Below are positions 968 through 62,695 of a stretch of DNA of 64,000 nt, piece by piece. Every line of letters begins with the position of its first letter. Position 1 is the first letter of the stretch. Both the position numbers and the translations under genes were made by a program. The notes beneath the pieces are model-generated. The model was not told the DNA's origin, made no database searches, and worked only from the letters and a program-made list of their open reading frames with translations. Source of the stretch: Eledone cirrhosa (taxonomy: Eukaryota); NCBI GenBank assembly GCA_964016885.1, contig OZ024742.1, forward strand, positions 273,482,001 to 273,546,000, written 5' to 3'.

Positions 968-1022
<55 letters not shown>
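968..1022. repeat. (TA)n microsatellite
   Basis: Direct reading; forms the left flank of the 1021-2109 element. Confidence 0.98.
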
Positions 1023-1026
<4 letters not shown>

Positions 1027-1095
1027 TATGAAGAGAGAAGAAACATTTAGATATAATTAGTAATAAAATGTATCATACCTAAACTGCTCCTAAAT

Positions 1096-1185
1096 TCCTC
1101 GACTACGTAGTTTCGTGGCATAAACAAAAACAATATATCATAAAGATATAGAGTCCCTGCGAGGTCTGCCGACTTATCAAGAGGA
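1096..1185 (-). ncRNA. Type I hammerhead ribozyme, U3:A8 core variant with long stem II insertion
   Basis: Minus strand: TCCTC-TTGATAA-GT(C)GGCA...TGCCAC-GAAA-CTACGTAG-TC-GAGGA. Stem I is 5 bp, stem III is palindromic, triplet is GUC. Confidence 0.85.
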
Positions 1186-1690
1186 TACCTCATTTTACTA
1201 GCCTCAAGAACGCGTCTACACGACGTGAGAAAGAATCCCAAAAGGCGGAGGGGGAGATAGTCACGCGATATAACGGTCGAGAAACAGAGCTAAGCCTCTT
1301 ATAACCACGAAGAAAATACCACGGAGGCGGAGGGGGTATTCATATCGAGGCCGCAGAAGAGGTGGTGAAGAAGGCTAGAAGTATGAGTAATGGAAGCTTT
1401 CCAGTTGTCCCCACACTTCAAAGATTGCTCGACCAGAGGGAGTTATTAACAATATATTTAGAAACACACAGATACATGCGGACACACACATATATACATG
1501 AATGCATCCGCACCCAACTGTGAGTTAAGGGTGCCAACTTCACCGATGTTGCTCAATGAATGACCGGGACAGACCAATTCAGTTGAACCAGACTGAACCA
1601 GTATCAGAGTTAAAAATACATTATGAAGAGAGAAGAAACATTTAGATATAATTAGTAATAAAATGTATCATACCTAAACTGCTCCTAAAT

Positions 1691-1780
1691 TCCTCGACTA
1701 CGTAGTTTCGTGGCATAAACAAAAACAATATATCATAAAGATATAGAGTCCCTGCGAGGTCTGCCGACTTATCAAGAGGA
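1691..1780 (-). ncRNA. Type I hammerhead ribozyme, second identical copy (U3:A8)
   Basis: Same motif as 1096-1185, shifted by 595 nt. Confidence 0.85.
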
Positions 1781-2107
1781 TACCTCATTTTACTAGTCTC
1801 AAGAACGCGTCTACACGACGTGAGAAAGAATCCCAAAAGGCGGAGGGGGAGATAGTCACGCGATATAATGGTCGAGAAACAGAGCTACGCCTCTTATAAC
1901 CACGAAGAAAATACCACGGAGGCGGAGGGGGTGTTCATATCGAGGCCGCAGAAGAGGTGGTGAAGAAGGCTAGAAGTATGAGTAATGGAAGCTTTCCAGT
2001 TGTCCCCACACTTCAAAGATTGCTCGACCAGAGGGAGTTATTAACAATATATTTAGAAACACACAAATACATGCGGACACACACATATATACATGAATGC
2101 ATCCGCA

Positions 2108-2109
<2 letters not shown>

Positions 2110-2148
<39 letters not shown>

Positions 2149-2274: not shown

Positions 2275-3133
2275 AATCAGATAAGAAAGCAAGTATCTGG
2301 GGTCTAGCACATCTGCTATAACAAGCGGAATCGGCAAGTTCTATCATAGAATGGGGGGGGGTACTGAGGCTACAGAGGACAGAAGGGCTGCCTCGGGATG
2401 GGCGAGAAGGTGAAAAGAACGACGACAAAGAAGGAGATCTGGGGTGGAAGGACTAAGAAGGGATGGGGAGAAGAAAGAAATATAGAGGAAACGATAAAAA
2501 ATATATGAGACATCTTACGTCTACCTTTGTAAGCAGGGGTTACCCATTAAAAAGTCGGCAAGTGGGGTGTTTCAGCCCTAGTCTACCCCCCCCCCCCCAC
2601 GGGTCATTATGTGGTTTGAGGGCGAAATAAGTCCTACGCAGTCTGTGTTTGTCTGTAGTTACCATTTCGTCTTTCTTGTTTAGAAGTTGGTCCGTCGAAA
2701 ACACCATTTGTAATGTTACCTCCGAGCTTAAGTTACACGGGGGGGCGTCCTCCCGTGTAAGAGTTGGCTCTGGACAGTAAGCTCCAAGTGAGATTATAGG
2801 TTATATTGTTATCTTTGAGGTCCCAGATGTGGCCCGAAAGTGTAGTGGCGTGACGCCGGGCCGGGTTTCGGAAAGTATGTCTGTGTTGGTATAGCCGGGT
2901 CTTGAAGTCACAAGCGGTTAATCCTATATAAGCTTTGTTGGAGGTGACCGTCCGCACGTTGCACTGGTAGATCATATTTAGATCACTGCATCTGTTGTCG
3001 ATGGGGAAAATGGATCCATTAGGACTGTTACACCTCCTGGTGGGCTCTCCACTGCTATCTAGGTTATTTCTTCCATAGGCGTTCAGTTTTTTGTTGTTAG
3101 AGGAGACGATGTTTTGTGCAAAATTAGGTGTGT
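2275..3133 (-). mobile_element. Penelope-like element 3' fragment (GIY-YIG plus 3' UTR), inverted partner of 3685-4548
   Basis: ORF 2733..2975 reads IYQC..KAYIGLTACDFKTRLYQHRHTF..TTLSGHIWDLKD; reverse-complement match to 3685-4548. Confidence 0.9.
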
Positions 3134-3154
3134 TGTACCCTTTAAGGGTACAAC

Positions 3155-4548
3155 CCCAGTAGTACAGACCGGGTCCGGAAACAATTAATCAGCTTCTTCT
3201 GTGACTGGGGATTTAAAATAACCCTACAAACGTCCCTAACCCGAATAAACTTCCTGGACGTTACCCTTGACCTAGATAATGATCTGTACTACACATACAG
3301 AAAACCAAACGACAACCTGCACTACATCCACCACCGGTCAAACCATCCTAGAAACATCAACAATAACCTGGTTCAAAACATCTCCCTCCGCATATCTCGT
3401 TTGTCCGCTTATGAGCAGATATTCAAGGAACATGTTATTACAACTAGGCCCTCAAGCGGATTGGCTTCCGGGAGGAAATATCCTACTGTCCAGCTCCCAC
3501 TAGCGGAAACAGCAGGCGACACCGCCGCTCACACAACGTAACATGTTTCAATCCTCCCCACAACGCCGAGGTGACAACACATATCGGGAAAAATCTTCTT
3601 TAGGCTCATCGAAAAACACTTCTGACTACAACACCGCTACCACAACATAATTAACAAAAATACTATCAAACTCTCCTACAGCACCACACCTAACTTTGCA
3701 CAAAACATCGTCATCTTCTCCTCTAACAACAAAAAAATCAACCCCTATGGAAGAAATAACCTAGATAGCAGTGGAGAGCCGACCAGGAGGTGTAACTGTC
3801 CTGATAGATCCATATTCCCCCTCGACAACAGATGCAGAGATCGTAATGTGATCTACCAGTGCAACGTGACACGGACACCTCCAACAGAGCTTATATAGGA
3901 TTAACTGCTTGTGACTTCAAGACCCGGCTATACCAACACAGACATACTTTCCGAAACCCGGCCCGGCGTCACGCCACTACACTTTCGGGCCACATCTGGG
4001 ACCTCAAAGATAACAATATAACCTATAATCTCACTTGGAGCTTACTGTCCAGAGCCAACACTTACATGGGAGGACGCGGTCCGTGTAACTTATGCTTGGA
4101 GGAAACATTACAAATGATGTTTTCGACGGACCAACTCCTAAACAAGAAAGACGAACTGGTAACTGCATGCAAACACAGACTGCGTAGGACTTATTTCGCC
4201 CTCAAACCCCGTAATGACCCCGGGAGGGGAGGGTAGACTAGGGCTGAAACACCCCAATTGCCGACTTTGTAATGGGTAACCCCTGCTTACAAAGGTAGAC
4301 GTAAGATGTCTCATATATATTTTATCGTTTCCTCTATATTTCTTTCTTCCCCCATCCCTTCTTAGTCCTTCCACCCCAGATCCCCTTCTTTGTCGTCGTT
4401 CTTTTCACCTTCTCGCCCACCCCGAGGCAGCCCTTCGGTCCTCTGTAGCCTCAGTACCCCCCCACCCCCATTAATTTGATAGAATTGGGCGATTTCGCTT
4501 TTTATAGCAGATGTGCTAGACCCCAGATACTTGCTTTCTTATCTGATT
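3155..4548 (+). mobile_element. Penelope-like element, 5'-truncated, Hydra-clade-like (RT thumb, linker, GIY-YIG), frameshifted
   Basis: NFLDVTLDL near 3247, FNPP near 3545, KLSYSTT near 3668, CNCPDRS near 3790, and ORF 3859..4236 with AYIGLT and CNLCLEE. Confidence 0.9.
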
Positions 4549-5557: not shown

Positions 5558-7060
5558 TATTGAAGGTTGCTTGAAGCGATGTGGAACAATAAGTAAATAT
5601 CTTTAAGTCGTTTGGAAGGCTCGACAATGCAAATGGGTAAATCTCCGGGTAACAAGGTCCGGTGGTGCAGAGAGAGATGTAAGTGGGTGTACGTTGAGAT
5701 GCGTGGTGTGTATAAGATGTGTGAGATGTGTAGAATGAAGGGAAGAGTATAAAGGATAAAAATAAAAATAACAACACAAGAGAGAGTTACCTTGGGAGAG
5801 ATTTAATAGTCCCTATATATTTCGGATTCACATCCATCAACTGGGGTTTTTTTCCGGGGTGGGGGAAAAGGTTGTCTGTCGGACAAGTCCGGAACGCGTC
5901 TTTCGCTGTTTGTTGTTTTGAATATCTGAGGTATTCGGCAGAGCGCGCGTGCGCGTGAAATGGGGTTGGTCGTACAGAGGTCAGCGGCCGAATGAGGGAG
6001 TGGGATGGCGCTAGCTGTCAGTCCATTATCTGCCTGTTTGTTAAATGTTACTGTGTGTGTGCGTGTGTTGTTGTCTCGCTTGAGTGTGTGTGTTGTGCGT
6101 GTGTGTTGTTGCCTTGTTCATCTCTATTGGCAGTATAGTATGTTCGTATGGTGGAATGCTGCTGTGTGTGTGTGTGTGTGTGTAGTTGTCTCGTTTGCGT
6201 GTGTTGTGTGTTGTTGCATCGCTTGTTAACTTAAACCAGCCATTTCATTTCGCTTGTCTCTGATCGGTTGTTTATTTGCGATTGCAGTCGTTTGATAAAA
6301 AGCGCTTCCTTGATACGTAACGTGCCGACATTTCTTTCAGTCGCTAGAATTGTGACAATGGGCCTTCCGTCTTTGTTTCCGCATTTGTCTATGTGTTTCC
6401 GGAAAAACGAGGCCCTGGTTTTAGTGTGTTCCTTGATCCGGATGTGCAAAGGTCGAATTGTGCTACATATGTAGTATTGGTTGCACATGTCACATTCTAT
6501 CTTATACACGACGTATGTGCGTAGGCAACAGTTAGCATGGCGTATCGGGCAGTCTCTGAGGGAGCATGCGTCAGTAGATTTTTCGGGTTTCCTGGAGAGG
6601 CATCTTCGCAGGGAGGGGCCCGAGTGGGCCAGGTGGATGTCGAGGCCCTCCCTCCGTATAGCCTTGCGGATAGCGTTGGTGGTTTTCTCGCCCAAGTGTG
6701 GCATTTTAAGGAAGCACTTGCCTTGGGTGCTTCTCTGTCTCTTGCGTCTGGTGTCTCCTATTCTGTCTGTGATCGAGGTAGGGTACCCGTTCGTCTCCAG
6801 CACCTCGAGGAATCGCTTAGTATGAGTGACACCACTCGCGGGATCGCTGCATCTGTTTTTGATTCGCGCGATCTCGTTCGTGATATATCCTCTTTTGGCA
6901 CTGTTAGGGAGGGCGGACTTGTAGTGAACGAATAGGTCCCTGCAGGCTGCCTTTCTGTAGAAGTTGCAGTGGATCCCTCCTTGTTCCGTGATGTTGATTC
7001 GGAAGTCGAGGAGGGCCAGTGACCCGTCTTCGTTGCGGGTGTTAAACACTGAAGTCAATG
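5553..7060 (-). mobile_element. Penelope-like element 3' portion (RT thumb plus GIY-YIG, with 3' UTR/pLTR); family distinct from the Hydra-like copies
   Basis: ORF 6231..7058: LLDFRI..FYRK..HYKSALP..NGYP..CSLRDCPI..VVYKIECDMCNQYYICSTIRPLHIRIKEH..EALFIK..INNRSE. Confidence 0.88.
5811..5846 (-). ncRNA. Degenerate minimal hammerhead in the PLE 3' region
   Basis: CCC-CAGTTGA-T-GGAT-gtga-ATCC-GAAA-TATA-TA-GGG; the core deviates at positions 4 and 6. Confidence 0.55.
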
Positions 7061-7115
7061 TTCTCGTCCGAATTACTACTACCTTTTGACAATCACTTTG
7101 ACCATATATGGAATT

Positions 7116-7209
7116 ACCCCTTGAGAAGCTCGGCTATTTAAATACCAGGATTAATTTTCATTTAGTCCAGAATTAGCCGTCGAAACGGCTTGAGCTCAGC
7201 CGTCGGGGT
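7116..7209 (+). ncRNA. Type I hammerhead ribozyme, U3:A8 variant, full 5-bp stem III, long stem II
   Basis: ACCCC-TTGAGAA-G(CT)CGGCTA...TAGCCG(T)C-GAAA-CGGCT-tgagctc-AGCCG-TC-GGGGT; GUC triplet. Confidence 0.85.
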
Positions 7210-7219
7210 CTTACTGGTT

Positions 7220-8759: not shown

Positions 8760-9000
8760 GGGGGCAGCCGCTATTATATCCCATTTTAGGTGAAATTGTT
8801 AGTTATTTTCACGCAGCTGCCAAGCCTTGTCTGCGAGTGTTGTTACATAACGCTGGTTTTCGTGTTCTATCACCCTTGAGACCGCTACTCGTACTGGTTT
8901 TCCTCCCATGGCCTGGCGTACGCGTCCTTTTCGCTAATATGGTGTTATCGGGTTCAATGGGTTTAGTGGTGTCTACTGTGCATGGGAAGATAACAAACAC
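8760..9000 (-). mobile_element. Penelope-like linker fragment
   Basis: ORF 8809..9000 ends CNNTRRQGLAAA, resembling SVQNKGMEAARNNTSNCNC of the 13828-15828 element. Confidence 0.45.
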
Positions 9001-9009
9001 ATAGCGCCC

Positions 9010-9860
9010 AAATGAAAAGCAACAATGCAGGAACCACTAGGAACCCAACAACTCCCCAACAGATCACAGCACGCTCAACCCATCCACATAGGTATAGACG
9101 TAGAAAAATCACATGGTACAACCCACCCTACTCAGCGGCCCTAAAGAACAGCATGAACGGGGCATTCTTTAGAGCACTAGATAAATGCTTCGCGAGGGAC
9201 CATAGATACCACAAGATCTTCAACAGCCACACTGTGAAGCTCTCGTATTCTACCACGCGCAACGTAGCTCAGCACATAGCTAGCATCAATAGGGCTAGAC
9301 TTAGAACCTACACACAACCAGAAGCTGGCAATATAAGCCCCCAGCAGAGCCATGTGGAGGGAGGGAAGAGTGGTCCCTGTACCCACCCTGCGAACCCAAA
9401 CAGACCTAGGAACCCCCCCCCCCGCACCGGGCCCAGGAGAAGTCCACCATATAATATTCAACGGGAACCCTATATTAAGCACTCGGGTGTCGGCCACCTC
9501 CGCGCAACTGCAGAACCCCCACATTATTCCCCCTTAGTAATGAATGTGTGTGTGTGTGTCACAGCTCCCCCCTTTTCAGGTTTAGCTGGCCTCCTCCAAG
9601 GTATATCTCGTTGGAGGTCTCTTGGGTAATTTAATGATAGGGACCCCAGTCCTATCATCCCATTTCTACAGTAATGAATACCTAAGTAAGGACTTAATAT
9701 ACGGATGTACAGTAAAAAACCCAACTCTGAGTACATTTTCATAGGAGCCAAATCAAGGAGCTTCAAAGACCGATGGTATAACCATCGCCATTCCTTTACT
9801 AGGAGGAAAAAAAGGAAAAGTACGGCTCATTCCGAATTGATCTGGAAGGTCAAGATGGAC
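9010..9860 (+). mobile_element. Penelope-like element fragment (post-RT linker and GIY-YIG remnant)
   Basis: RRRKITWYNPPYS..FFRALDKCF..HRYHKIFNSHTVKLSYSTT in ORF 9012..9629; FIGAKSRSFKDRWYNHRHSF..ELIWK at ~9738-9850. Confidence 0.82.
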
Positions 9861-10202
9861 ATAGCAGCAGCACACTAAAGCTTACCTGCCAGCTGACCCC
9901 CTAACACCACTACCACTACCAACACAATGGAGGAGGTCAGCTGTACTTAAACAAAACCAACTACAACTGATTTTCTTGCTTCAGAACATTTTCTATGGAC
10001 TGTTGACAGAGGAATGTTCTCACAACTGACCAATGGGATGCGAGCGTATCTTATGACGCCGAAATTCTTTTGTTCTAACTCATATAATTCCAGTTCCTCA
10101 AGCAAATATTAACACAACCAGGAGCTGGACATATCGATGAATTGACGGAGTAAAACACAATTCAACAAAATGTGTACCTATCTTTCCCACACCAATTCGG
10201 AA

Positions 10203-10253
10203 TGCATGAAGAGGTCACAGCCAATGATGGCTGTCACAGAAAAATATATAGCA
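10203..10253 (+). ncRNA. Degenerate hammerhead (position 3 = A)
   Basis: TGC-ATGAAGA-G-GT(C)ACAGCCA-atga-TGGCTGT(C)AC-A-GAAA-AATATA-TA-GCA. Confidence 0.55.
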
Positions 10254-10424
10254 GTATATCGAAAATTTATAATAAACGAAGCCAGATTTTATATATTTGA
10301 CTTAATTATTTTACATTACACCGGAGTAAACAAACCAGCCTGCCTACTTCATCGAGTGCTCCAATCTGCATACTGAGGTGTCGGTAAGCAACTTACATAT
10401 AGTCAAAATTCATATATGTATATA

Positions 10425-12870
10425 TATTTATAAAATAACAGATTAAAGTTTAAGCAAAGAATCGCTAAGTATTTCGAAGTTGATATCATCCTCAATGCCC
10501 GAAAGTCGGTGATTAATTTCGACGACTCTATTTGGATAAAAAAATCCAATAGCACCCCAATCGACGTGAGCATTGGCGCTAGTGATTCTGCGGAGGTTAC
10601 TTATCTTATCGGCCTTTTCGTTCTTTTCTCTATCAAGGACGAATTTCCCAACGCGGGCGGTGGTTTGTACCGTGACGATGGTCTTTTGACCATGACTAAG
10701 TGCGGACCTCGTGCTTGCGACAGGTTCAGAAAAGAACTCACAGCCTTCTTTAAAGGCTTCAACCTCTCTATACAGGTTGAGGCCAATCTCTCGGTCGTTT
10801 ATTACCTTGACGTTACCCTCAATTTATTGAATGGGTTGTAATACCCGTATAGAAAGCCGAATGATACGCTTAATTACATAAGAAAGCATTCCAACCATCC
10901 TGCCAGCATAACCAAGAACCTGGTAAGAAACGTTTCGTTGAGGCTTTCCCGTCTTTCCACCAACGAGCGTATTTTCAACGACCATTCCACTATTACTATG
11001 AAGCCCTTGCTCGAAGTGGATTTGTCGATAAGGTAGCATATACAGAGTACGAAAATAGACCTAGAAGAAATAGATCCCGTCGCATTTGTTGGTATAACCC
11101 ACCATATAACATGCAGGTGGCCACACCATTAGCTAAGATCTTTCTTTCCCTTATTACGAAGTATTTTCACCCTACACATAAATATAGTAAAATGTTTATA
11201 GAAATACTATTAAAATTTCTTACTCTACGACTCCTAACCTTGCACACAACATCACAGCTTCAAATTTAGCTAAACTACCTAGGCGTAGGAACACGTGCAA
11301 CCCGGTAGTTAGTACTAACTGTAATTGTAGGAATCGGGTTGATTGCCCCCTATCCGGGAAATGCCTCTCTAGTAATATTGTCTACAAATGTAAGGTTGTA
11401 ACATCCACGTCCAGTAGGGCCTACATAGGGTTAACCGCCAATAGATTCAAGCAGCGTCTTTACACGCATCCCCATTCTTTTCGTTACCCTCTAAGAAGGA
11501 ATATGACGTCACTTTCAGCTTATATCTGGAGTCTAAAAGACAACCACACCCAATATAAGTTACACTGGGAGATCCTAGCTAGGACTAGATCGTATAACGG
11601 AAATAAAAGACCTTGTGACCTCTGCGCCGCTGAGGCCCTGGAAATACTATACGCCACAGACCACATCTTAAACAAAAAATCTGAGGCAATTTCGGCTTGT
11701 AAACATAATTTGAAAAAAGCTTTCCTGTATTACAGCCCCACGTTATACCCTAATGGATAGTACCATCTATACGTGGATATTTTACGTCTTGATGAGGGAG
11801 CTATGTATATGTTTTGTTTATACCCTTACTTATTTGCATAGGTAAGTATATTTACCCGTATGTTTCGTGAAGGTACTTATACCTTCTCGTATGTATATTT
11901 GATTGTTTATGTTATGGCGTATAAACTCTTTTTATTTTTTTTTTTATTCTGGTACTTATGGTTTGACTATGTGTATACGGGAGTTTTGCGTCTGTGGGTG
12001 TATGAAGGTTCGTACGTATGTAGGGTGTGTGTATATGTCTACTTCATGTTTTGGTTGACTTTCGTCTCCGAACATTCGTGTATTTACATGTAGGTATGTG
12101 TGTGCGCTTGTTATTTACGTATTTATTTATTTATATACGTTTATATAATTATATATTTATTTATTTGTATACACGCATACACACACACACATATTTATAT
12201 GTGTGTGGTTTTGTATACATATGGTAAGTGTCTTGCGTATGCTTGTGTATGTACGTTTTTGTTTGCGTGTATGTATTTATTTATTTCTATTACTTCTGTA
12301 TTGTATTTATTTACTTTGTTCATAACTCTGTAGCGGAGATTCATTCGGTCTCCTAGTTAGAATTTTAGTCTACGACTTCTGCTATACCATTTACGTGGTT
12401 TTCTCTTTGCGTGCTATTGTTCTTCACGTTCCACATATGACGTATTATCTTCATTTTTTTCGTTCATTGCCAAAGAACGTCTCTATGAACCACCTAAGAG
12501 AACATTAGTCTACGGCCTCATTATACCATAAACGTGGTTCTGTCTTTGCGCGTAATTGTTTTTCACCGCTCCTATTAATGACGTATCTTACTCGTTTTTT
12601 CCCGTTCTCTGCCAGCGAACGTTACCACGAACCAAAGTATCGTCTTCCTGTCTTCCTCCGGTCGCAACGATTTTTGAAATATCCACTTCTGCGTTTAGAG
12701 ATTCACGTTGTTAGTTTCAGAAGATCCCGTTAAGGGTGAAAGCAGCGATTCTTCGCTTAAACTTTAATCTGTTATTTTATAAATATTTGCTCTACGGTTC
12801 CTATATATTTGATATATATTTATCCTTATCGAGCCCTCTTTGGATTTTAGTCTTGAAATTTATTATTATT
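10425..12870 (+). mobile_element. Penelope-like element, Hydra-clade-like, 5'-truncated, with an inverted pLTR piece at its 5' junction
   Basis: GASDSAEV..GGLYRDDGL..YLDVTLNL (10509..10841), WYNPPY, CNCRNRVDCPLSGKC, AYIGLT, CDLCAAE; 10425-10466 is the reverse complement of 12744-12785. Confidence 0.92.
12713..12763 (+). ncRNA. Hammerhead-fold motif with CAGAAGA (U4-to-A) core in the pLTR
   Basis: AGTTT-CAGAAGA-T-CCC-gttaa-GGG-T-GAAA-GC..GC-TT-AAACT; paralogues at 18131-18180 (-) and 21960-22012 (+). Confidence 0.7.
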
Positions 12871-13628: not shown

Positions 13629-13771
13629 ATAGGGAAAGAGTCAAGACCCCACGGACGAGCTCCGGCCTTTTCGACAGCCAAATCCGAACTAAGCGACCTA
13701 ATGCTGGTGAGTTAGTCCGGATCTAGCTGTCTAAACGGCTGGATCTCAGTTGCCGGGCTCCTGATTCTTTT

Positions 13772-13776
<5 letters not shown>
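13629..13776. repeat. Imperfect ~148-bp palindrome built from the 3' half of the 5325/7116 hammerhead family
   Basis: Right arm TTAGTCCGGATCTAGCTGTCTAAACGGCTGGATCTCAGTTG resembles 7162-7202; left arm 13629-13696 is its reverse complement. Confidence 0.7.
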
Positions 13777-13827
<51 letters not shown>

Positions 13828-16375
13828 ATGAACCTTAACACATACAATAATTTCATTCAGCGTGAACTACACAAAAAATACAAAAAAAAAAATGAATCCA
13901 CACTCACCAGCATTAATAGGGAGAGTCTTAGATTAGTAAATAAACTCGGAATATCCGATAGAACCGAGCCTCTAACCCCTTGGAACACCACATTTAATCT
14001 TAAGGGTCACAAAAATAATTTTGAAGCAAATCCTATTATCAGATTAATATGCCCATCTAAGTCGGATATAGGTAAAATTAGCAAGAATATTCTAGATAGG
14101 CTAATCGCACAAATAAAGGGAAAACTAGAAATCAGTTTATGGGGTAACACTAACGAAGCGATTGTATGGTTCTGTAAAATAGGAAATAGAGAAGCATGTA
14201 ACTTCATACAATTCGATATAAATGATTACTACGCATCCATATTCCCAGCCACTCTAGATAAAGCCCAAAATAACTCCGCTCTTATCCCTGATGAAATTGA
14301 AATAATTCTAGCTGCTAGAAGGACTATCATAACATTTGAAAATAGGTATTGGGTAAGAAAAGATAGGGTAAACAGCTTCGATATCACAATGGGGTCGAAC
14401 GATTCAGCGCAAATCACTGACGTCGTGGGATTATTTATATCACACAACCTACATAAAGAATTCAGCAACCTCCAAGGAGGGATTTATAGAGATGACACAC
14501 TCCTTATAGCTAGGAACTTAAATAACCAGAGCATAGAAAGATTAAGAAAAAGCATTAGAACATTCTTCAAAAAACTAGGCCTAAGTATTACCTACGAACT
14601 GAATCATAAAAAGGCAAACTTTCTAGATGTGACTCTAAATCTAAATACGGGATTAATAGAACCCTTCCACAAAAATAATGAAAATCTGGCCTACATTAGT
14701 TATAACTCAAACCACCCCCAGTCCATAATCAGATCCATAGCACGTAGTATATCCCTTAGAATATCCCGCTTATCCTCAAACCTAGGAATGTTTAATGAGC
14801 ATGCTAACTATTATAACGCGACATTACATAGGGCCGGACACAAAGAAAAGCTACAGTTTATAACGGATAAAGACAACTCAAACAAACCCACTAACACTGA
14901 CACCAACCGCTCACATAAAAATAGAGGTAACCGGACTAGACATAGAGGTAGACAAATAGCACCTAGAGTAGCTGGTCCAAACACGAATAATGTAAACCCT
15001 AGAAGAATTAGAGAAAGAAAATACCTGTGGTTTAATCCAATCTTCAACACCTCTGTAAAAACTAGACTGCCTTCTACGTTTTTAAACTAATAGATAAGCA
15101 CTACCCTATATCACATAGATATCATAAAATCCTCAATAGAAAAAATTTTAAAACTCTCATACTCTACGGCTGCAAATATAGAATCCCACATACACAAGAT
15201 CAACCACAGAAATACCTCTATGGAAACCACCTCACCTCTGCGCATCATAGCTCCAAATTCTAAACATAAACACATCACCGTATCACAACCGCGAACGCAT
15301 ACGAGCGCGCCGCAGCAAAACCTCAACGAGCATGAATCACAACCCACTTATAGGAGTGTACAAAACAAAGGTATGGAAGCTGCACGGAACAACACCTCAA
15401 ACTGCAATTGTCACCTACCAGATAGGTGCCCATTGGCGAAAAGGTGCCTTGATTCGAGCCTAGTGTACATGTGTACGGTGAACTCGGGCAACTCCACTTG
15501 GCATTACATTGGATCCACCGCGGGTACATTTAAAAAAAGATGGTATGTGCACAGACATTCGATGAAGAACCGTGCACTAATAGGTTCTACAACCCTCGCC
15601 AAAAAAATCTGGAAATTTAAGGACAAAAACATGAACTACAATATCAACTGGTCGACGTTGTCGGCCGCAAGAGTATACAGTACCGGTATGTCCTATTGTA
15701 GACTCTGCGACCTTGAATTATTGTATATCCTTAGGAACGATAAAAGGCTACTTCACAACAAAATAGAAAGGTCAATTTTCTGTAGACAGAGGATCGCTAC
15801 TAAATTCACAAAATTTAAGCCACCATGATTCGAACCAACATAACTTAGCATTCAACATATGAAATCCGCACTCTCACACAGACCACCACAGACCTATAAT
15901 ATTCTTTAAACAGCTTCTAGCCTCCTTAATTCTATACCACAGTAATGTCTGCAAATATCTTATCAACACATAAATATATCTCTTCTCGGCTGCTGTCAAC
16001 ACCACCTCCTCACTCTTGAGTTTCAACAGATGAACTTAATTCTAAGTACATTATTTGACTACTACCACAGTCCTTGAAATATCACCTTCCTCCTGTTGTT
16101 ATAATGAACACCCCAATGTATCCGTAATAGTATTCATCAAGTTCTCTCTATATATACCTTGCTTCCTTAACCTTTGTATTACCTTATTGCCTATTTCTTG
16201 ATTTATTATTACTCCAAGTGTAAACTACATAGAAATCACCGCGTACTCGCAGCATCACCATGGAAACGTCTTGTTGAGTCAAACTTAGCCAAGAGTTAAT
16301 ACTATACACTACTCGGAGTACCATAACTGGACTACATCTAAGTGGACTACCTATAACAATAATTTGTTATACCGT
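13828..16375 (+). mobile_element. Penelope-like element, Hydra-clade-like; long RT plus GIY-YIG ORF with one frameshift near 15087, 5' end lost in (TA)n
   Basis: ORF 13828..15090: RLICPSKSDIGKISK, FIQFDINDYY, MGSNDSAQ, GGIYRDD, FLDVTLNL, SNHP, WFNP. ORF 15220..15828: CNCHLPDRCPL, LVYMC, HYIGST, CRLCDLE. Confidence 0.95.
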
Positions 16376-18110: not shown

Positions 18111-20240
18111 TTATTAAAATAACAGATTAAAGTTTAAGCAAAAATCGCTGCTTTAACCGTTAACGGGATCTTCTGAAACTGAAAAAATCAATCAGGGAAC
18201 GCAGCAGTGAATATTTCGAAAAACGTTGTAACTGAGGGAAAACAGGAAGACGATACTTATATTTAGTGGAGACGTTCCCTGGCAAGGAACAAAAAAAAAA
18301 GCGAAAAAAGCAAAAAAAAATACGTCAATATGTGGAGCGTGAGAATAATTACACGCAAAGACAAAACCACGTATATGGTATAAATGAAGTCGTACACTAA
18401 AATTCTATTTCGGAAACCGAATGATTCTCGGCTTCCGAGTTAAGATTAATGTAAATAAATTACAGAGGTTATTGAAATCAACAATATTAAAATACATGCA
18501 CGCATCCAAATACGTACATACCCATGCATAAGTCCATATTCAAGCGCATGCACAAAAACACTTGTACACATACAAAAAACCGCGCACACCTGTACCAGCA
18601 CACATATGATCGTATACACCAAATTTACATAAATATATAAAACAAATAAATATTCGTGCGTGTATGTGTGCGTGCATACATATAATTATATAAACGTATA
18701 TAAATATATTCACATAGATACGTATATAACGCGAGCACACACATACCTACAAGTAAATACACATATGTACGCTAAACGTACGTGAACCCAAAACACAAAG
18801 TACATATATACACACCCTACAAACGTGAAAACCCGCACACACACACAAACGCAAAATACACGTATACACAGAACCATATATACACGTAACAATATATATA
18901 ATATAATATATACACCAATAACAAATACAAGCAAATATAAGTACGAGAAAGTATACGTACCTTCACAAAACATACAACTAGTATATACTTACCTATACAA
19001 ATAAGTAATGGTATAAACATAAAATATACTTAACTACCACATCAAGACGTAAATTATCCGCATATTGTTCGTACTATCCGTTAGTGTATAATGTGGGGCT
19101 TTAATACAGGAAAGTGTTATGCAATTCATGTTTACAAGCTGAAATTGCCTGATATTTTTTGTTTAAGATATGGTCATTGGCGTAGAGTATTTCCAGGGCT
19201 TCAGCGGCACAGAGATCACATGGTCTTTTATTTCCATTATACGATCTAGCTTCAGCTAGGATCTCCCAGTGTAGCCTATATTGGTTGTGGTTGTCTTTTA
19301 GACTCCAGCTGTAAGCTGAAAATGACGTCATATTCCTTCTTAAAGGGTTAAGATCTTAGCTAATGGTGTGGCCACCTCTATATTATATGGTGGATTATAC
19401 CATATAATGCGCCGGGATATATTTTCCTTAGGTCTATGCTCATACTCGGTATATGCTACCTTATCGACAAACACACTCCGAGCAAGAGCTTCATTCTGAA
19501 ATGTGGAATGGTCGGTGAAAATATGCTCGTTTGTAGAACGACGGGAAAGCCTTAAAGAGAAGTTTCTTACCAGGTTCTTGGTTATGATGGGAGGTTGGTT
19601 GGAATGCTTACTTATGTAAATAGGCGTATCATTCGGCTTTCTATACGGGTATTGCAAGCGATTCGACAAATTGAGGGTAACGTCGAGGTAATTAATGACC
19701 GAGAGGTTGGCCTCAACCTGTATGGAGAGGTTGAAGCCTTTAAAGAAGGCTGTGAGTTCTTTTCTGAACCTGTCGCAAGCGCGTGGGCCGCACATAGTCA
19801 TGGTTAAAAGACCATCATAACGGTACAAACTACCGCCCACATTGGGGAAGGTCTTCCTTGATAGAGAAAAGGAGGAAAAGGCCGATAAGATAAGTAACCT
19901 CTGCAGAATCGCTGGCGCCCATACTGACATCGAATGGGGTACTAATAGATTTTTTAATCCAAATAGAGTCGTCGAAATTAATCACCGATTTACGTGCATT
20001 GAGGATGACATCAAATCGAAATCCTTAACCACCGTGAGCGTTTAAGGGAAATTGATAGCTCTAAGAAGAAATGGTAAAGTGATGGAGGAGTAGTAATTAT
20101 TGATGTCGAATTGGATAAAACGGCAATGTTCCTTGTTGTATATGCCGTTAAACCAATCAAACACCGCGAAAGAATTTTTCCACAGTGCAAGAGGGGCCAA
20201 GCTTCTAATTTCAGGTATAATTCTATCTAAAATCCTTTGA
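18108..20240 (-). mobile_element. Penelope-like element, same family as 10425-12870, with an internal deletion near 19350
   Basis: ORFs 19340..19930 (LYRYDGLL, YLDVTLNL, WYNPPY) and 19101..19331 (CDLCAAE); RFIQFDINNYYS at ~20085-20125; hammerhead remnant at 18131-18180. Confidence 0.92.
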
Positions 20241-25354: not shown

Positions 25355-26485
25355 CAGAGCAAAAGTGATTTTAACGTCATCCAACTAGAGCTCATGAGTG
25401 ATATATACCGTGGCTGCCTTCAACGTGCGGCTTTGGTTGACTCAGTTATGTTGTTCGGTGGGCCGATTTCGGGCAGTTCTGAGGTAGTAGTTCCTGGATA
25501 TTAATAACAAATAAATGATGATTAACACGGATAAGCGATACGATACGGATTTATTCCAAGCATTATCATGTTTCATTGCCTAGTGTGTAAACGTTTGCAT
25601 CTTAAAATAGCTATATAAAAATGTTATTGTGAAATTCAGTTTTCAATACTGTTTATACCAGGTAAATTATCAAAAACTGATTTTGGAGTCAGTGATACGA
25701 TGGTTTATACAAAGTCATATAAATATCAACATGGAAAACAACATAAATAAACTGAGAGATGTACATGTCTGATGGGCAATAAAAGATAAAATAATATGAT
25801 AATAAAAGTGAAGAATGTTGTATACCAAAGGTTCTCAACAGGGAGCATATGCCGTAGGAGGAAGGCGTTTCGTAGCTCCAGGGGAGCGTTACGCAGTAAG
25901 GCGGCGTTAGGGGGCGTTTGAACTTTGGGGGCGATAGAAGCCCCTTTAGTTTGGTAAGTTTTGTAAGTCATAATTGTACGTCTCTTAGACAGCTAGAGTG
26001 AATGGTTTTGAATGAATAAAACGAAGAAAATAAATAAAATAAGCTTGTCAAAACATTCCCTAGGCAGATAAATGAAAATGAAAAGAAATCAAAAGGAATT
26101 AAAATAAGGACTTCAAAAGAAATGACAACAAAAAGAAGCAATGGTGGTGAACATTCACGCACATACATACATACATACATACACACACACACATATATAT
26201 ATACAGACACAGACCGGCGTTAGTGTTTGATGACGTTGAGAACCCGGTCAGCTTTCAGCCAGAGGTGTGGTATCTAATCTCCATAGGTAATAAAATCTGG
26301 CGACAAAATGTTTCTACTTACCAAAATAGAACACATAGATCATATCAACATCCTTACACACTTAAATATAAATGCATGTATATATGCAAATGTATAAATG
26401 CATAGCTATATACATACGTAAATGCATGTACGTATATATGTATGCATGTAGATTTATATATATATATATTTCGTTTCTGAATTTG

Positions 26486-26545
26486 TTATTAGCAAGACAC
26501 TTATTAGCAAGACACTTATTAGCAAGACACTTATTAGCAAGACAT
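26486..26545 (+). repeat. 4x 15-bp tandem repeat TTATTAGCAAGACAC
   Basis: Direct reading; the last unit ends ..GACAT and runs into the PLE ORF. Confidence 0.97.
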
Positions 26546-27239
26546 ACCCGTTCCAAAGACCCTCATGTATAGATAAGAAATGCATAACCTGTAAAATAAG
26601 CCCCCATATTAACTGTAAAACTAGAAATGTAGTATATAGCATAAGATGTACTGAAGGACAATGTAGAAACAAAAATGTAGTGTACATAGGTGAGACAGCT
26701 CGTAGTATAGGGGAACGAATAAATGAACACTGGCGAGACCTCCAAGATAGTAAAGAATCATCTGTGCTCTACCAACATACTAAGATAGAACACAGGTGTA
26801 AATTAGAGAGCATAGAAATAAAAATAGAATCCACACACAAGAAAGACGCAATGTTTAGGCAAATTACAGAGGCAGTAAGCATAAAAGAATTAAAACCAAA
26901 ATTAAATAGAAAATATGAGTGGAACAGCAACATCACAACTTACAATTAAGGACAAAATGAAAACACACACACACATAGAACAAACAACTTACAATTGAAA
27001 ACACACACAAGACAAAATGAAAACACACACACACATAGAACAAACAACCAACCAACAATAAATAAATAAATAAACAAACAAATAGAAAAATATAAATAGA
27101 AAAATAGAAAAATGAACACAAACACACACACAGACACCCGGATGTGGCGCATGCGCAAACTGAGCACGCAACCCACACACAAACAAAATGGCGTAGGATA
27201 GAAGAAAGGAAAGGCACAGAAACGAAGAAAGAAATCCCC

Positions 27240-28098: not shown

Positions 28099-28840
28099 GT
28101 ATACCTACCTGCCAGATGATTGAACGTATGAAAGTATATACTTTCTTTATGCATATTAACGGCTGAGCAGCCTAATTTGCATATCGAGTGACTTAATTGG
28201 CCGGGTGCACCGAAAACGATAAATGGAAAAAATGAAACGAAATTTATTAATGCTTTTCAAAAATAATTTTGAGATAGAGCGCTAGTGTTGTTTGCTCTCA
28301 TCCCTCTATATATAGTGGTAGAACACTGGAAGGTAACATTCGTAGTAGTAGAGCACTAATCAACCACAGGAGGTCAAATCCTATGTGGGTATGGCGGAGG
28401 GCCGATTTAAGGAACGCTTCCTGAACCACCAGTCGACCTTTAGGTGCACAGACAGACGTTCATCCACGAAACACGTGAGCTCAAGGACTCAAGTATAGAC
28501 TACTCCATCCAATGGAAAGCCATCACTAAGTCCAAGCCATACGCAAGGGGAAATCCGTCGTGTGGAGTATGTATTGATGAACGAATATATATTCTAAAGA
28601 GATTATGCAATAGTGATTGCCTCAACACGAGAAATGAATTCTTCACACGTTGGCCACACGTTTCGAAACACTTCTTACATAACTACAAAGTTCCGGATTG
28701 AATCACAATAACATCCTAATTTTCTTATCAACTAGAAACTTTTCGGATTTTCGCAGTTATCTCCCTTACACCTCTCGCATGCTTTTTAGTATTGCTTGTG
28801 TGAAGTGACGGTTTGTCCTTCCTGTTCCGTATAACCATGT

Positions 28841-28890
28841 CCATTACGAGCTGAGGATCCGCTAAGGTGAAACAATTGTTCTCGGTATGG
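28841..28890 (+). ncRNA. Minimal hammerhead in the upstream pLTR (damaged copy at 31360-31409)
   Basis: CCAT-TA-CGAG-CTGAGGA-T-CC-gctaa-GG-T-GAAA-CAATTG-TT-CTCG-GT-ATGG; palindromic CAATTG; GUU triplet. Confidence 0.78.
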
Positions 28891-29138
28891 TGAACTAACT
28901 GTTGTGTAACCACTTCTACTTAACACGTCCCATGGACTGAGTGCTCTACCACTACGGATATTACCTTTCAGTGTTCTACCACTATATACGTCTCCAGCAA
29001 CGGTCAGCAGATTCTCTTCACTGCGTAGAAGTTTGGCTTTTAGCAAATTCTTCACCACGTGCGAGTTTGGCTTACTACCGTGAGAACGCTCTCTATATCC
29101 TCGTGTCCTACACAATTTTGTGTCTCATCAACGTGAGT

Positions 29139-31196
29139 ATGGATTTATACGAACTGTATTACTCTCTGAAGAACATTCCCACTCCCTCCAACAATGTTTA
29201 CCAAAAGCTTCTTCTACAAAAAGCAGATGTCGTCAGACGCTTAAAATGGCGAGCACTAGCTTTTGACGGCAAAATTGCAGGCACCAATAACAACTTCAAC
29301 CTGAAATCGAGAGCCTACCCTCCTGAGGTAACTGAACTTGCTCCTTTCGAGGCGGACCTTCTGGACTTAGTCGCTAACATTTCTTTTCGCAAACACCCTA
29401 ACACCTTTCAAACTAATCTTAGAAATGATATTAAGAATTTAGGTCTTCTAATAACACTTTCGTTCTTTCCGCCAAACTAATAATATTAACGAAGTCGACA
29501 ACACCACTTTCCGTCACCTGCCCCATAACGCTATTACTTCCAAATATAAGAAAGCTAACCCTATGTCCTACCGCGACATTGATACAGAAGCCAAATTATT
29601 TGCCACCGCCCTTAAGGTAGATAAGAAGCTACAATCTCTAGCTAAGCGGGAGGCATTCCTCACACTGAAAGATCACAAGGTAGACATTAATTCTAACCCC
29701 ACATGTAGACTTATAAACCCGGCACGCACATATATGGGACTAGACAGTAAGGCCATACTTAGAAACATAGTAAAGACCATTAGGACCAAGTCCAACCTGT
29801 CCCACTGGGAGAACAGCGACTCCGTAATTAAGTGGTTCAACTCCTTCAAATCCAAAAAAGCGAAGTTCACACTGTTCGACATTGTTTATTTTTACCCGTC
29901 GATCTCAGAGACCCTGTTAAACAAAGCGTTGGACTTCGCTACCACTTACACTACGATCGATTATTTACACAGGGAAATAATCGCTCACTGCCGGAAAACC
30001 CTCCTCTTCAACGACGGAGTAGCCTGGGCAAAGAATTCAACAACTTCAGACCTATTCGATGTCTCCATAGCATCGTTGGACAGTTCTGACGTGTGAGACT
30101 TAGGTGGCCTATTTATTTTAGATATATTACGTGCTAGATTCCCGGACTTCCACACGGGAATATACCGCGACGACGGACTGAACTTATCAAGCTTTATGGC
30201 TCGATAAGTTCAGTGGTCACGACCTCGAACGGTTTAAAAAAGACTTAGCTTCTACCTTCAATGAGTTAGGATTTAGGATAATAGTAGCTACAAACCTCTC
30301 TAGCGTAGATTTCTTAGACATTAATTTAGACCTTCGCACACACACCTACAGACCCTTCCATAAGCTAACCGAAAAACTCCATTACATTCACAAGGACTCA
30401 TGCCAACCTCCCACTGTTTTTAGAAACCTCGTAAATAATATCAGTACTAGAATCTCAAACCTCTCCTCTAATAAGGCTATCTTTGATAGGGTGGCACCCT
30501 ACTATAACACGGCGTTAGCTAACTGCGGCTTCTCGCAACCTATCATTTACTCTCCCACTATCAACAACAGCAACAAGAAAATAAAGCGTAACAATAGACC
30601 AACTATTTGGTTCTCTCCTCCCTTCTCACTCAACGTTAAAACCAATGTAGGCAAACAATTTCTAGCCCTCTTAGATAGACACTTTCCCATAGGTCATAAA
30701 TACCGCTCCATCTTTAGCCGACACAAAGTAAGACTAGGATACTCCTGCGCTAAAAAATGAAGGCCCAAATCACCAAGAGCCCTAAGAGCAACACCTCACC
30801 AGGGTGCTCTTGCCGTAAGCCCGAAGCTTGTCCCCTTCAACAGCAATGCAACACACCCGCTGTTATTTATAAAGCTGTGGTCACTTCCAACAGACCAAAT
30901 CAACCACAGGAGGTCAAATCCATTAGTCTACCTTTAGGTACCCGGCCACGAAACTCGCGAGCCACGTATGGACCCCCAAGAACTCACATATAGAGCACTC
31001 CATCCAATGGAATGCCATCACTAAGTCCAAGCCATTCGCAAGGGGAAATCCGTCGTGTGGACTATGTATTGATGAACGAATAAATATTCTAAAGAGATTA
31101 TGCAATATTGATTGCCTAAACACGAGAAATGAATTCTTCACACGTTGTCCACACGTCTCGAAACACCTCTTACATAACTACAAAGCTCCAGATTGA
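29139..31196 (+). pseudogene. PLE RT-GIY-YIG polyprotein, disrupted by stops, frameshifts and a deletion removing the YVG motif
   Basis: MDLYELYYSLKNIP..RRLKWRA; TLKDHK..CRLINPA; FDIVYFYPSI; GIYRDDGL near 30157; WFSPPFS; CSCRKPEACPL; CGLCIDE. Confidence 0.9.
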
Positions 31197-31436
31197 ATCA
31201 CAATAACATCCTAATTTTCTTATCAACTAGAAACTTTTCGGACGTTCGCAGTTGTCTCCCATACACCTCTCGCACGCTCTTTAGTATTGCCTGTGTGGAG
31301 TGACGGTTTCTGCGCATGCGCGTTCGTAGGGTTGTCCTTCCTGTTACGTATAACCATGTCCATTACGAGCTGAGGATCCGCTAAGGTGAAACAATTGATT
31401 TCGGTATGGTGAACTAACTATTGTGTAACCACTTCT

Positions 31437-44240: not shown

Positions 44241-47200
44241 GATTGGCCAGAGAGGAAAGTGTCCGTCTTCAACCCCTTCAAGCTTGTCTACCACAATCTT
44301 TTTCGCCATGGCCACCAGGCAGATGGACACTGTGTGCCCTTCCTCCTCAATGAAGCAAGATGGCGGGCTATCTGCACAATGGACTCAGTCGATAACCGGA
44401 TCCGTCCTAAACGCGACAGCTCCGCATTTCAGCAATCCTCAGGCACTGAACGAGTGCGTGCAGAACGGTTTCCTCACCCTGCGCGCATTTCGGACAGGCT
44501 CGGCTGACAGCACCTCCATGCCTGTAGAGCTTATCCCAAACCAGCAACGCCAGGCCAGGGATTTGTGGAAGTTGTCCATAGGCCCCGGGCTGAAAGTTCA
44601 CTTGGAGAGAGCGAACAGCTGATCGTCTTTGACGCCCAGTGTCTCCCCGAGAACATCGTCGCTCTTCCTCTCCACTAGCCCTCTATAGAATGCCGAGGTG
44701 GATGTTCCACCGATACTCTTGCCCAGCTGGTAGAGGGCGGTGAGCGCTTGGAGAAATTCCAGCTACCAAGTGCTATACCTCGGTCTTTTCCTGATCCAGA
44801 ACAGCAGCTCCGTCAAGGAGAGGAGCTGGGGAAAGGCATGTCTGGCAAACGACGACCACACCTGTTCACAATCAAGGATGCACCAGAGATGTCGCAACCT
44901 CAGCGCATGCTTGTACATCATCATCCACGGCATGCCCAGTCCTCCACGCAACGGTTGCTGACAGCAGATGGATCGTCTGATCATGTGAGCACGTCCCTTC
45001 CACAAAAAGCGGAAGAGAAGGTGCTCCATTTTGGTCAGAGTTGGGCGGGTGCAATCTACGAGGCTCAGGCGGTAACACATGACTCATTCGCCACCCCCGC
45101 CCGACCTTTCAGAGACAGCCTCCTCTCGGCTCATTTCTGGGTAAAAGAAACAACCCTGCTCGTCACCTCCCTCCAGTTTTCCTCCATCTGGAGGTCTGGA
45201 TCGAACAAGACCCCGAGCAATCTAACCGGTCCTTCCGTCAAGGGCATCATAACGCTGTCAGACGGCAGGGACTTGCCTCTCCAGGTGCCGAGTTGCAAGC
45301 CCATCAACTCTACCTAGTTTAACCTTGCTCCTGTCACCGCTTCGTATTCCCTGAGTGCAGTGCCGAGCATCTGGACGAGTTTGGTATTTGACACCACCAC
45401 GGTGAAATCGTCGACGTAAGCCGACACGTATCTTTCGCACCCACATTCGTTAGGGACACCCTCATGCTCTTCAATGTGTGCAGTAATTGCTCCAGGGGCA
45501 GTACGTACAAGAGGGACGAGAGGGGACAAATCTGGCAGACCGAGGGCATGATGCTGAAAGGCTGCGAAGGTGACCATTCACCCTTAAAATCGAAGAGATG
45601 TTGCTCTGCATCGCAGTAAACAAGCCCCTGAAAATGGGCCCCAAACCCTCCCCCTCGAGGACCGACACCAGGTACCGATGTTCTACCCTATCAAATGCCT
45701 TAATTTGATCTAATTTGAACAGGGGCCCACCCATCACAGGTTCCTTAACCACCCTCTCTATGATGTATCGGATGAGGTGGAGGTTGTTGTGGATGGATCT
45801 GTCTGGAATGGCGCATGTCTGCGCCTCTCCTACCAGATTACCAACGACAAGCGCGAACCTCGTGGCTAACACCTTCGCCAAAATCTTGAAATCCTAGTTT
45901 AACAGGGTTATGGACCTGAAATTGTCAATAACGACTCCCTTGTTCGGGTCTTTTCTCAACAGCACCACCTATCCCCGGCTAACAGAACTGGGATTGCTCC
46001 TGTTCTGCTGCCATTTGCAGTAGACATCTGCCAAGAGGTCGCCGAACAAGTTTGGCATCTACACATAAAGCTCGTAGGGCAAACCATCCAAAGCTGGCGA
46101 TTTACCCCTCGTGTAGTCAGACATCGCTTCCCGTATTTCACCTGTTGTTATCGGTTTTTCGAAATATTGCACTGCAGTCGTCGAGAGCTGCCGCAGCGCC
46201 TTGGCGTATGCACTGAAATTCATACTCCGATCTGGCCCGCCGCCGCTTCCAATTATTTGGCAAAGTGCTGCTGAAAGGCCTCACATATCTGCTCGGGTTC
46301 GAGTAACATGTGCCCGTTTTAGTCAGGCAAGGATTGAATTGTGGCTTTGTTGCCACGTCACGCTTCCACCATCCGGGCCCATTGGACAGATTTTGACCTC
46401 TCTTGTCTCAGAGCACGCGCTCTAACACTGACAACGCAGCCTTCGTACTTTGCATTGAAGGATTGATCGTGTGCCAATCTTGCCGCAAACGCGATGCCTG
46501 TCCTAAACGCTTCTTCTAGCTTTCTAACTAGCTCTCCTTCTCTATTTTCCTCTATATTTACTCCTTTCCTAAACCTTATTAATTCTACTCCAATTTCCCT
46601 TTTCAGGTTAAACCACCGCCTGTTGTTGCCGATCCCACCCGTCAATGCACGCTTACTATTTCGCTTATCCGGTCTCTGTAAGCTTTGCGAGCCGGGTACG
46701 ACGCGTTCAGCTTCCAGTAACCGGGTCCTTGCCTATGAATTATATCTAATTCAACTTCACAGATCACAAACTGGTGGTCCGAGTAGCCGACTACTATAAA
46801 TTGGGGACAACCTACGCTAGCCTTAACTGTTTCCCCACACAATACCCTATCTAGATACAATCTGGATGACTCGATGTGCTATGCCCATGTCCACATTGGC
46901 ACATTCGCATAATCCAGTCGATACCTGTCAGACTGTTCAACACGTCTGAGCAGGTTGTTGAGGCTTTTACATCCTCCTCCCTTATTTACTAACCCCACAT
47001 AATCCCAGCGAGCATCTAAGATACCGTTGCAGTCACCCACTAACAGTAAAGAGCGGGACGTTCCAAGAAAGGTCTCTAGGTGTCGGAAGAAATCTGGCCG
47101 TCCTGCCCCTGTTGGGGTGTAGACGGCTACTGACCTGAAAGCATTGCGTTCACTGCCTGTCACGTCCAGTACACCCGACTTACCTTCTGGGTCCAGGAAC

Positions 47201-48376: not shown

Positions 48377-48409
<33 letters not shown>
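48377..48409. repeat. (AAT)11 tract at the junction of LINE copies B and A
   Basis: Direct reading; follows AATAAA on the minus strand. Confidence 0.97.

Positions 48410-48411
<2 letters not shown>

Positions 48412-58922: not shown

Positions 58923-58982
<60 letters not shown>
58923..58982. repeat. (AAT)20 tract at the junction of LINE copies E and D
   Basis: Direct reading; follows AATAAA on the minus strand. Confidence 0.97.
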
Positions 58983-58984
<2 letters not shown>

Positions 58985-62686: not shown

Positions 62687-62695
62687 ATTGGTAAG

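Follow-up and report, generated by a model that had tools for sequence, protein, structure and literature searches.

For the non-LTR retrozymes of metazoans, mobilization by Penelope-like elements from circular RNA has been proposed (PMC7229834), and a descent of retrozymes from the terminal repeats of Penelope-like elements has been argued in a study that also reports in vitro cleavage of one out of nine retrozyme dimers (Li, Clavereau, Pollet 2026, bioRxiv 10.64898/2026.07.22.740005). Penelope-like elements of Schistosoma carry hammerhead ribozymes in which U3-A8 is a known covariant of C3-G8, and hammerheads with a palindromic stem III are described by the same source as weak and dimer-dependent (PMC4209133). 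Among Penelope-like elements, the Hydra clade is marked by RWK, DKT, CxCx5C and CxxC/CxH motifs without CCHH and almost always inserts in (TA)n, and non-autonomous Chlamys elements with head-to-tail insertions are mentioned in the paper that describes it (PMC8557442). For Poseidon of Anolis (PAc), in vitro work has shown that reverse transcription can start internally at two sites and on either strand, with both target strands nicked and extended and the protein predicted to be dimeric (Frangieh et al. 2024, PMC11167929). Questions named in these papers include what machinery mobilizes the retrozymes of animals, whether their template is a circular RNA, and how the inverted repeats and one-sided tails of Penelope elements originate.

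Here we describe a retrozyme family that bears on these questions, starting from one copy at 1021-2109 of a 64,000-nt stretch of Eledone cirrhosa DNA (GCA_964016885.1, contig OZ024742.1, positions 273,482,001 to 273,546,000, forward strand), hereafter the window, which lies on contig 3 of a 3.0-Gb genome.

Structure of the 1021-2109 locus

A preliminary description had read this locus as a young LTR-like element in which two 494-bp repeats with about five differences flank a 101-bp spacer. The repeat geometry was borne out, with 1021-1514 and 1616-2109 forming direct repeats of 494 bp at an offset of 595 with exactly five mismatches (1202/1797, 1274/1869, 1293/1888, 1338/1933 and 1471/2066), separated by the 101 bp of 1515-1615. 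The comparison to LTRs had to be given up: the locus is 1.83 laps of a tandem non-LTR (animal) retrozyme rather than an LTR pair, in the lap order unit 182-595, 1-595, 1-80 (numbered from the cut site), and the ‘spacer’ is the portion of the unit that this tandem covers once, other copies differing in length and phase. Identical hammerheads on the minus strand, with cuts at 1696/1695 and 1101/1100 that bound a 595-nt unit at 1101-1695, had also been claimed, and a type I descriptor recovered the same sites. Coordinates are collected in Table 1; site A, the 3′ end of this copy, also occurs internally at 1616. Both flanks are (TA)n, so that a 4-bp target-site duplication is unreadable at 1021-2109.

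Table 1. Features of the retrozyme insertion and its flanks, in window coordinates
Feature	Position	Strand	Remark
Retrozyme insertion, single arm, 5′-truncated	1021..2109	-	1.83 head-to-tail laps of the 595-nt unit
One full unit between both predicted cut sites	1101..1695	-	GC 42%, strongly self-paired in prediction
‘Spacer’, unit 81-181, within the A-to-B stretch	1515..1615	-	Single cover in this copy
Hammerhead 1, type I	1691..1780	-	Core UUGAUAA 1775-1769, GAAA 1709-1706, predicted cut 1696/1695
Hammerhead 2, type I	1096..1185	-	Same as hammerhead 1; predicted cut 1101/1100
Site A (unit +80), where this copy ends 3′, plus the invariant run directly before it	1021..1046	-	
Site B (unit +244 to 252), second fixed 3′ end of the family	1444..1452, also 2039-2047	-	Internal here
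Short motif immediately past site B	1425..1442, also 2020-2037	-	Common with autonomous Hydra-clade leaders
(TA)n target, 3′ side of element	969..1020	.	
(TA)n target, 5′ side of element	2110..2144	.	

The longest stop-free frame of the 595-nt unit is about 80 codons, and the monomer is predicted to be more self-paired than its shuffles both as a circle (z -6.0, 40 shuffles) and as a linear RNA (z -5.5, 0/100 shuffles). The youth first ascribed to the element holds, as the copy falls in a young subfamily with a mean divergence of 0.48% over 54 insertions, mostly of set 1 (2/60 in set 2; both sets are defined below). The five repeat differences are changes of a single lap, three of which are absent from all others of the 122 insertions. 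An RNA-seq search for permuted repeat alleles would be uninformative at this locus because no repeat-2 differing position lies within 1101-1695. Nor can reads across a circle junction discriminate, since that junction equals the genomic tandem junction letter for letter and is present at many other loci. In two sequencing runs (X5 and X6) the unit assembled into one contig each of 620-621 nt (the unit plus 30 letters), a closed loop in the assembly graph that fits a circle and a tandem equally.

Copies of the retrozyme family and class assignment

Elsewhere in the genome, an exact 28-letter pattern that ends at unit +80 and continues into TA repeats occurs 2,458 times (control, 0), and one form of the site B end gave 768 exact genomic junctions (control, 0). 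The number of laps in other copies ranges from 0.1 to 5; their 5′ ends vary, and their 3′ ends lie at two fixed sites. Two samples were read. Set 1 comprises 62 distinct insertions selected as perfect matches to three window segments, after removal of loci fetched twice and of a second copy in L013, and is biased toward the window's young subfamily. Set 2 comprises 60 loci on contig 1, the first among 100 listed of the 2,458 A-end matches; from it we excluded an additional copy in L132 as well as nearby parts of unrelated insertions in L127, L159 and L161, and having an exact A end is its sole bias.

The family shows the features of non-LTR retrozymes, namely head-to-tail units at a spacing of 595 nt, a type I hammerhead in each lap, and a non-coding monomer of 42% GC that is highly self-paired in prediction. 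Features of LTR retrozymes were not found: the hammerhead is of type I and not of type III, 5′ ends are spread over the whole unit, and inspection of 1515-1615 by eye, in either orientation, revealed no primer-binding site or polypurine tract. We regard it as nearly certain that the 595-nt family is a retrozyme, and as highly likely that it is mobilized by Penelope-type machinery. The stretch at 1515-1615 was at one point considered as the end of an endonuclease gene; this was dropped, as 59/60 of the sampled loci have no adjoining Penelope-like ORF.

A sister retrozyme family (L127:3616-3980, L185-L213; 2002 candidates) is older, has a unit of about 580 nt, and its copies are approximately 88-99% alike to one member. 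It is identical to the present unit at 441/595 positions, keeps the ribozyme core and both ends, and has a longer stem I. Its two-arm loci, classified by eye, were A+B in 18/22 cases, B+B in two and other in two.

Two readings would give the locus a different structure altogether. It could be a miniature LTR element, either a TRIM or a plant-type LTR retrozyme, made of two LTRs and a 101-bp internal domain; near-identical direct repeats with hammerheads do flank a short unique piece at 1021-2109, but other copies vary freely in length and phase and include 5′-truncated and inverted ones, the hammerhead is of type I, insertion is into (TA)n, and no TG...CA ends, primer-binding site or purine tract were seen at the locus. 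We hold this to be very improbable. An assembly error as the source of the duplication, to which the microsatellite on both sides and the lack of a spanning contig among those listed would lend themselves, is more improbable still, given that the repeats differ at five positions (three of them found in no other of 122 insertions) and that 27/60 sampled copies likewise cross at least two cut sites.

Two fixed 3′ ends and inverted insertions

All 92 of the visible 3′ ends in set 1 fall at unit 69-81 (site A, with 50 exactly at unit 80) or at unit 244-262 (site B), and all abut (TA)n. In set 2, 36/60 insertions are inverted A+B pairs, 22 have a single arm, and two combine A with another end. Over both sets, 67/70 two-arm insertions are A+B, three are other combinations, and neither A+A nor B+B was found; the 3′ ends point outward in all 70. 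At the joint, the arms overlap by 2-12 letters in 38/63 simple cases. Arm lengths grade smoothly from 69 to 2928 nt, and 5′ ends are spread across the unit with no enrichment at the cut site (3/191 within 2 nt, p=0.22). Sites A and B each lie a few bases 3′ of a long hairpin in the predicted fold and are separated by 165-172 nt; two of the three longest invariant runs of the unit end at A and just before B, respectively. One insertion between two (TA)n runs (L175:312-391) consists of exactly unit 1-80, reaching from the predicted cut site to site A, and is what would be expected as a product of cut RNA.

Hammerhead ribozyme

In the descriptor scan, the hammerhead consists of a 5-bp stem I, a UUGAUAA core, a 59-nt stem II region, GAAA, a 3-bp stem III and GUC. 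The core is the U3-A8 covariant rather than CUGANGA, and the palindromic stem III sits in a 10-nt palindrome. Both hammerheads at the locus are the same from stem I to stem I on the minus strand. Rfam gave no match at gathering level at the locus and no hammerhead family among 33 matches to E 10, which we take as a blind spot of the models for the U3-A8 hammerhead variant. The motif is not a chance occurrence, because every one of the 41 genomic places listed for the junction piece 1515-1640 (40 scored of 944 candidates) matches it at 100% identity; many of these places are spaced 595 nt apart.

The preliminary description had called both hammerheads intact, which holds for their sequence and less well for their predicted fold. 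Taken by itself, a 111-nt ribozyme piece is no more stable in prediction than its shuffled versions (z -0.83), the active fold of the isolated hammerhead is predicted to lie 1.4 kcal/mol above the best fold, and in the full 1089-nt RNA stems I and III have pairing probabilities of at most 0.01, so that the hammerhead fold is not dominant in context. Two palindromes are predicted to pair at -13.5 kcal/mol. This modelling suggests that cutting would be weak and dimer-dependent. A read-through transcript had been expected to release the 595-nt unit; the monomer of that size stands as the biological unit, but its efficient release is less than certain, given a ribozyme predicted to depend on dimers.

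The core is constant in approximately 125-130 laps of the family. Counting as inherited those variant positions at which the variant is the majority in at least two insertions, none of the 44 hammerhead core and stem positions carries one, compared with 96/595 positions overall (Fisher p=3e-4). At the level of inherited sequence, this invariance shows constraint in the lineages that spread, as distinct from cleavage itself.

Probable circular and multimeric templates

Among the A arms of set 2, 57/60 cross the cut site, 27/60 cross at least two cut sites and 5/60 at least three. The cut linear monomer is thus not the usual template, because 57/60 A arms run past the site at which it would end, and the copied RNA must contain that site intact. 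Laps within an arm agree at 3023/3048 polymorphic comparisons, where 2427 would be expected from random members, and paired arms agree at 1189/1196 comparisons, where 957 would be expected; each insertion therefore has one source. Divergence is 0.47% between laps and 1.5% between arrays, and 51 arrays of at least 1.5 laps resolve into 27 array-wide haplotypes. Among 83 arms with repeated cover, 21 arm-level private alleles, in 15 insertions, are present in every lap. One insertion (L151) carries three private alleles in all of its 7-8 laps, in both arms. Deletions at the cut junction were absent from about 260 laps, and no junction insertions were seen in the 26 insertions for which they were tabulated. 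Array-wide private alleles of this kind favour repeated copying of what would be a circle.

A different pattern is found in L090 (2405-6659), a 7-lap inverted insertion with five lap-specific alleles in register in both arms, four of which are private to it; L014 and L172 show in-register lap-specific alleles in both arms on a smaller scale. Judged by their allele patterns, these three would require either a template that was uncut or multimeric or a subsequent conversion from arm to arm. Altogether, 3/30 informative two-arm insertions (L090, L014 and L172) share lap-specific alleles and 26/30 share none. A further point against repeated copying of a circle is that 123 private alleles are found in some laps only. 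Adjacent laps share alleles in L090, L014, L170, L008 and L022, as local DNA duplication would give. A monomeric circle is unlikely to be the only route, because lap-specific alleles are shared in register in L090, L014 and L172. We consider it probable that the circle is a major template, and circle and multimer routes probably both operate. The earlier view that the ends of the unit are suited to circularization fits with this, circularization being a likely route.

A Hydra-clade Penelope-like element as candidate helper

Using an ORF of the window as query, we found a family with an intact ORF of 793 aa, six full-length copies of which are 99.4-99.6% identical to L104. The ORF has RWK, DKT, CxCx5C and CxxC/CxH motifs and lacks CCHH, and by these motifs the family is placed in the Hydra clade; an initial Neptune-like assignment was replaced in accordance with the motif list of PMC8557442. 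A Pfam search of the protein returned no family, and an Atlas search returned unnamed clusters, of which some include members annotated with HTH_animal, GIY-YIG or RVT_1. In L104, a type I hammerhead with a long stem II is predicted at 740-860, 280 nt before the start codon.

The ends of this family are arranged as in the retrozyme. Of the 31 copies inspected, the end lies against (TA)n at +64 in 13 and at +237 in 16, counted from their own predicted cut; the remaining two run on into the ORF, and all eight opposed pairs join +64 with +237. The Hydra clade is likely to provide the helper because a young, intact Hydra element has this same end layout. The motif immediately past site B scored 38 against the Hydra leader, compared with a maximum of 21 in 826 other windows of comparison, the window in question having been chosen after the match was seen; it is located shortly before the start codon and is exact in 16/20 related Hydra ORF starts (by eye). 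The unit aligns to the whole L104 leader with a score of 46, marginally above the best shuffle (44), and similarity between the unit and L104 near site A is not significant (6/411 windows were equally good). Neither 30 loci of the L104 family nor 20 more distant ORF starts yielded a closer autonomous parent that extends its identity along the unit. On the sequence features listed here, a Hydra-clade element is probably the helper of the retrozyme.

Several further observations concern Penelope-like and other retroelements. Hammerheads of autonomous Hydra families (L104, L274-L293) have long stem II inserts, with cores of CCGAAGA in L104 and CUGAUGA or CUGAGGA in its relatives, and microsatellites occur within the 3′ regions of these families. 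In two places (L117:1-149, and L276 on the downstream side of its ORF) a retrozyme has gone into (TA)n where a Hydra copy ends or close by, and candidate helper and passenger therefore share target runs. The window itself holds a broken copy of the 793-aa Hydra family at 13765-15828 (approximately 81% DNA identity) and, at 28482-31436 (+), a decayed Hydra-like Penelope element whose terminal repeats are 2495 nt apart (by eye), with compact type I hammerheads near 28850-28890 and 31368-31410 that have a CUGAGGA core and a palindromic stem III. Penelope-like fragments of at least two types are found at 2733-4077, 6231-7210, 8994-11760, 19340-19981 and 26452-26949, several as inverted pairs beside (TA)n, and palindromes resembling hammerhead stem III occur near 5400 and 7177-7210. 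At 44700-62700, a non-LTR retrotransposon that has an endonuclease-reverse transcriptase frame is present in four GC-rich copies, which are 68-86% similar and lie in both orientations.

Two alternatives accept the retrozyme and part from our reading over its template or its helper. With the same element and helper, there may be no circle at all: templates would be uncut read-through RNAs, and arrays would regrow and homogenize by local DNA duplication or unequal exchange. The register of lap-specific alleles between arms in L090, L014 and L172 and the sharing between neighbouring laps in L090, L014, L170, L008 and L022 would follow naturally from this, as would the weakness of the predicted ribozyme fold; uncut RNA was dominant in vitro for Poseidon of Anolis, whose ribozyme mutants inserted normally (PMC11167929), and local amplification has been proposed by Li et al. 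2026 (bioRxiv 10.64898/2026.07.22.740005). However, 26/30 informative insertions are without lap-specific sharing and there are 27 array-wide haplotypes among the 51 long arrays. Daughters would moreover never be longer than their parents, yet only 5/60 A arms cross at least three cut sites. Arm lengths are smooth from 69 to 2928 nt, near-identical arrays already have three laps (L016), and the ribozyme core is under constraint. We therefore judge a route wholly without circles unlikely. Somewhat less likely again is a helper from a (TA)n-targeting Penelope-like element of another clade, for example Naiad or a CCHH-type element, in place of Hydra. No close parent turned up among the families examined, Naiads prefer (TA)n too (PMC8557442), and at L180:1409-1819 the 5′ end of a retrozyme arm abuts a same-strand coding fragment of another Penelope-like type. 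Against this, the Hydra family matches the retrozyme in end positions and spacing, in its long-stem-II hammerhead, in its similar age and in the motif past B. The L180:1409-1819 junction itself may be the result of a template switch or of a target deletion.

Proposed mechanism and significance

Taken as a whole, our preferred explanation, which we consider probable, is that of a non-LTR retrozyme that travels as a passenger of Hydra-clade Penelope-like elements and is often copied from a circular monomer. Arrays of at least two laps would be transcribed, and their hammerheads would cut, probably weakly and as a dimer formed via the palindromic stem III; some monomers would be ligated to circles and uncut multimers would persist. 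The helper protein would then nick (TA)n and initiate reverse transcription internally on the RNA, one target strand priming at A and its partner at B; copying would extend back through the hammerhead site, whether sealed or uncut, over varying distances. A single primer would give a 5′-truncated tandem, as at 1021-2109, and two primers would give an inverted pair joined at the 5′ ends.

A more specific form of this proposal, to which we give slightly less than an even chance, is that the family records Penelope integration itself: a dimeric Hydra protein would act on one RNA, usually a circle, with A and B each priming one nicked strand, and the hammerhead would be kept because circles are the main template. 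If this is true, the tandems arise as copying rolls round the circle, and the inverted repeats and one-sided ‘tail’ result from starts made in pairs.

As an object, the family is an ordinary animal retrozyme, and its value lies in being a clean system for mechanistic questions. Very young copies number in the thousands in this one genome, which also has an intact candidate protein, and the RNA is short, with two exactly placed start sites. Direct predictions for an in vitro assay like that of the Anolis element follow from the A+B rule, from ribozyme constraint and from both types of allele pattern, and the insertions likely record the workings of the little-understood Penelope-like machinery.

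Comparison with known systems

In the literature searched, mostly non-subscription and with supplements aside, we found no retrozyme end map, counted A+B rule, Hydra-dependent retrozyme or allele evidence on the template; nor was paired A/B priming of one retrozyme RNA found there for retrozymes or for the Hydra clade. As in the non-LTR retrozymes described in PMC7229834 and bioRxiv 10.64898/2026.07.22.740005, the units are tandem and non-coding, with one type I hammerhead each, a GC content below 45%, a self-paired monomer and no LTR features. The 595-nt unit is larger than the 170-400 nt given in PMC7229834 but within the 51-972 range of bioRxiv 10.64898/2026.07.22.740005. Set against the non-LTR retrozymes that these sources describe, the ribozyme here belongs to the Penelope type, with U3-A8 and a long stem II, and is missed by Rfam; copies of the family are scattered as short arrays in (TA)n, have two fixed ends and are frequently inverted. 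Plant LTR retrozymes (PMC4918200) likewise have two hammerheads about 600 nt apart and a predicted circularizable monomer. As PMC7229834 and bioRxiv 10.64898/2026.07.22.740005 describe them, their ribozymes are of type III and they possess true LTRs with a primer-binding site and a purine tract, which were not found here, and they make 4-bp target duplications, which the (TA)n flanks would mask at 1021-2109.

With the Hydra-clade elements of Craig et al. 2021 (PMC8557442), the family has in common the (TA)n target, the hammerhead, 5′ truncation and partial tandems, as well as the inverted 5′-truncated partner and a ‘tail’ at one end only. Unlike those elements it has no ORF, and its A-to-B stretch measures 165-172 nt as opposed to the 30-40-bp tail reported in that paper; with the autonomous Hydra families found here, it has only the short motif in common. 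Like PAc, it has two internal sites, here putative starts, downstream of the hammerhead cut and an AT-rich target (PMC11167929). In PAc, the start sites are adjacent, lie at an AC-rich stem loop and show no strand difference in vitro (PMC11167929), whereas the two sites of the retrozyme are approximately 170 nt apart, AU-rich and each 3′ of a predicted long hairpin, with one site at each end in 67/70 inverted insertions.
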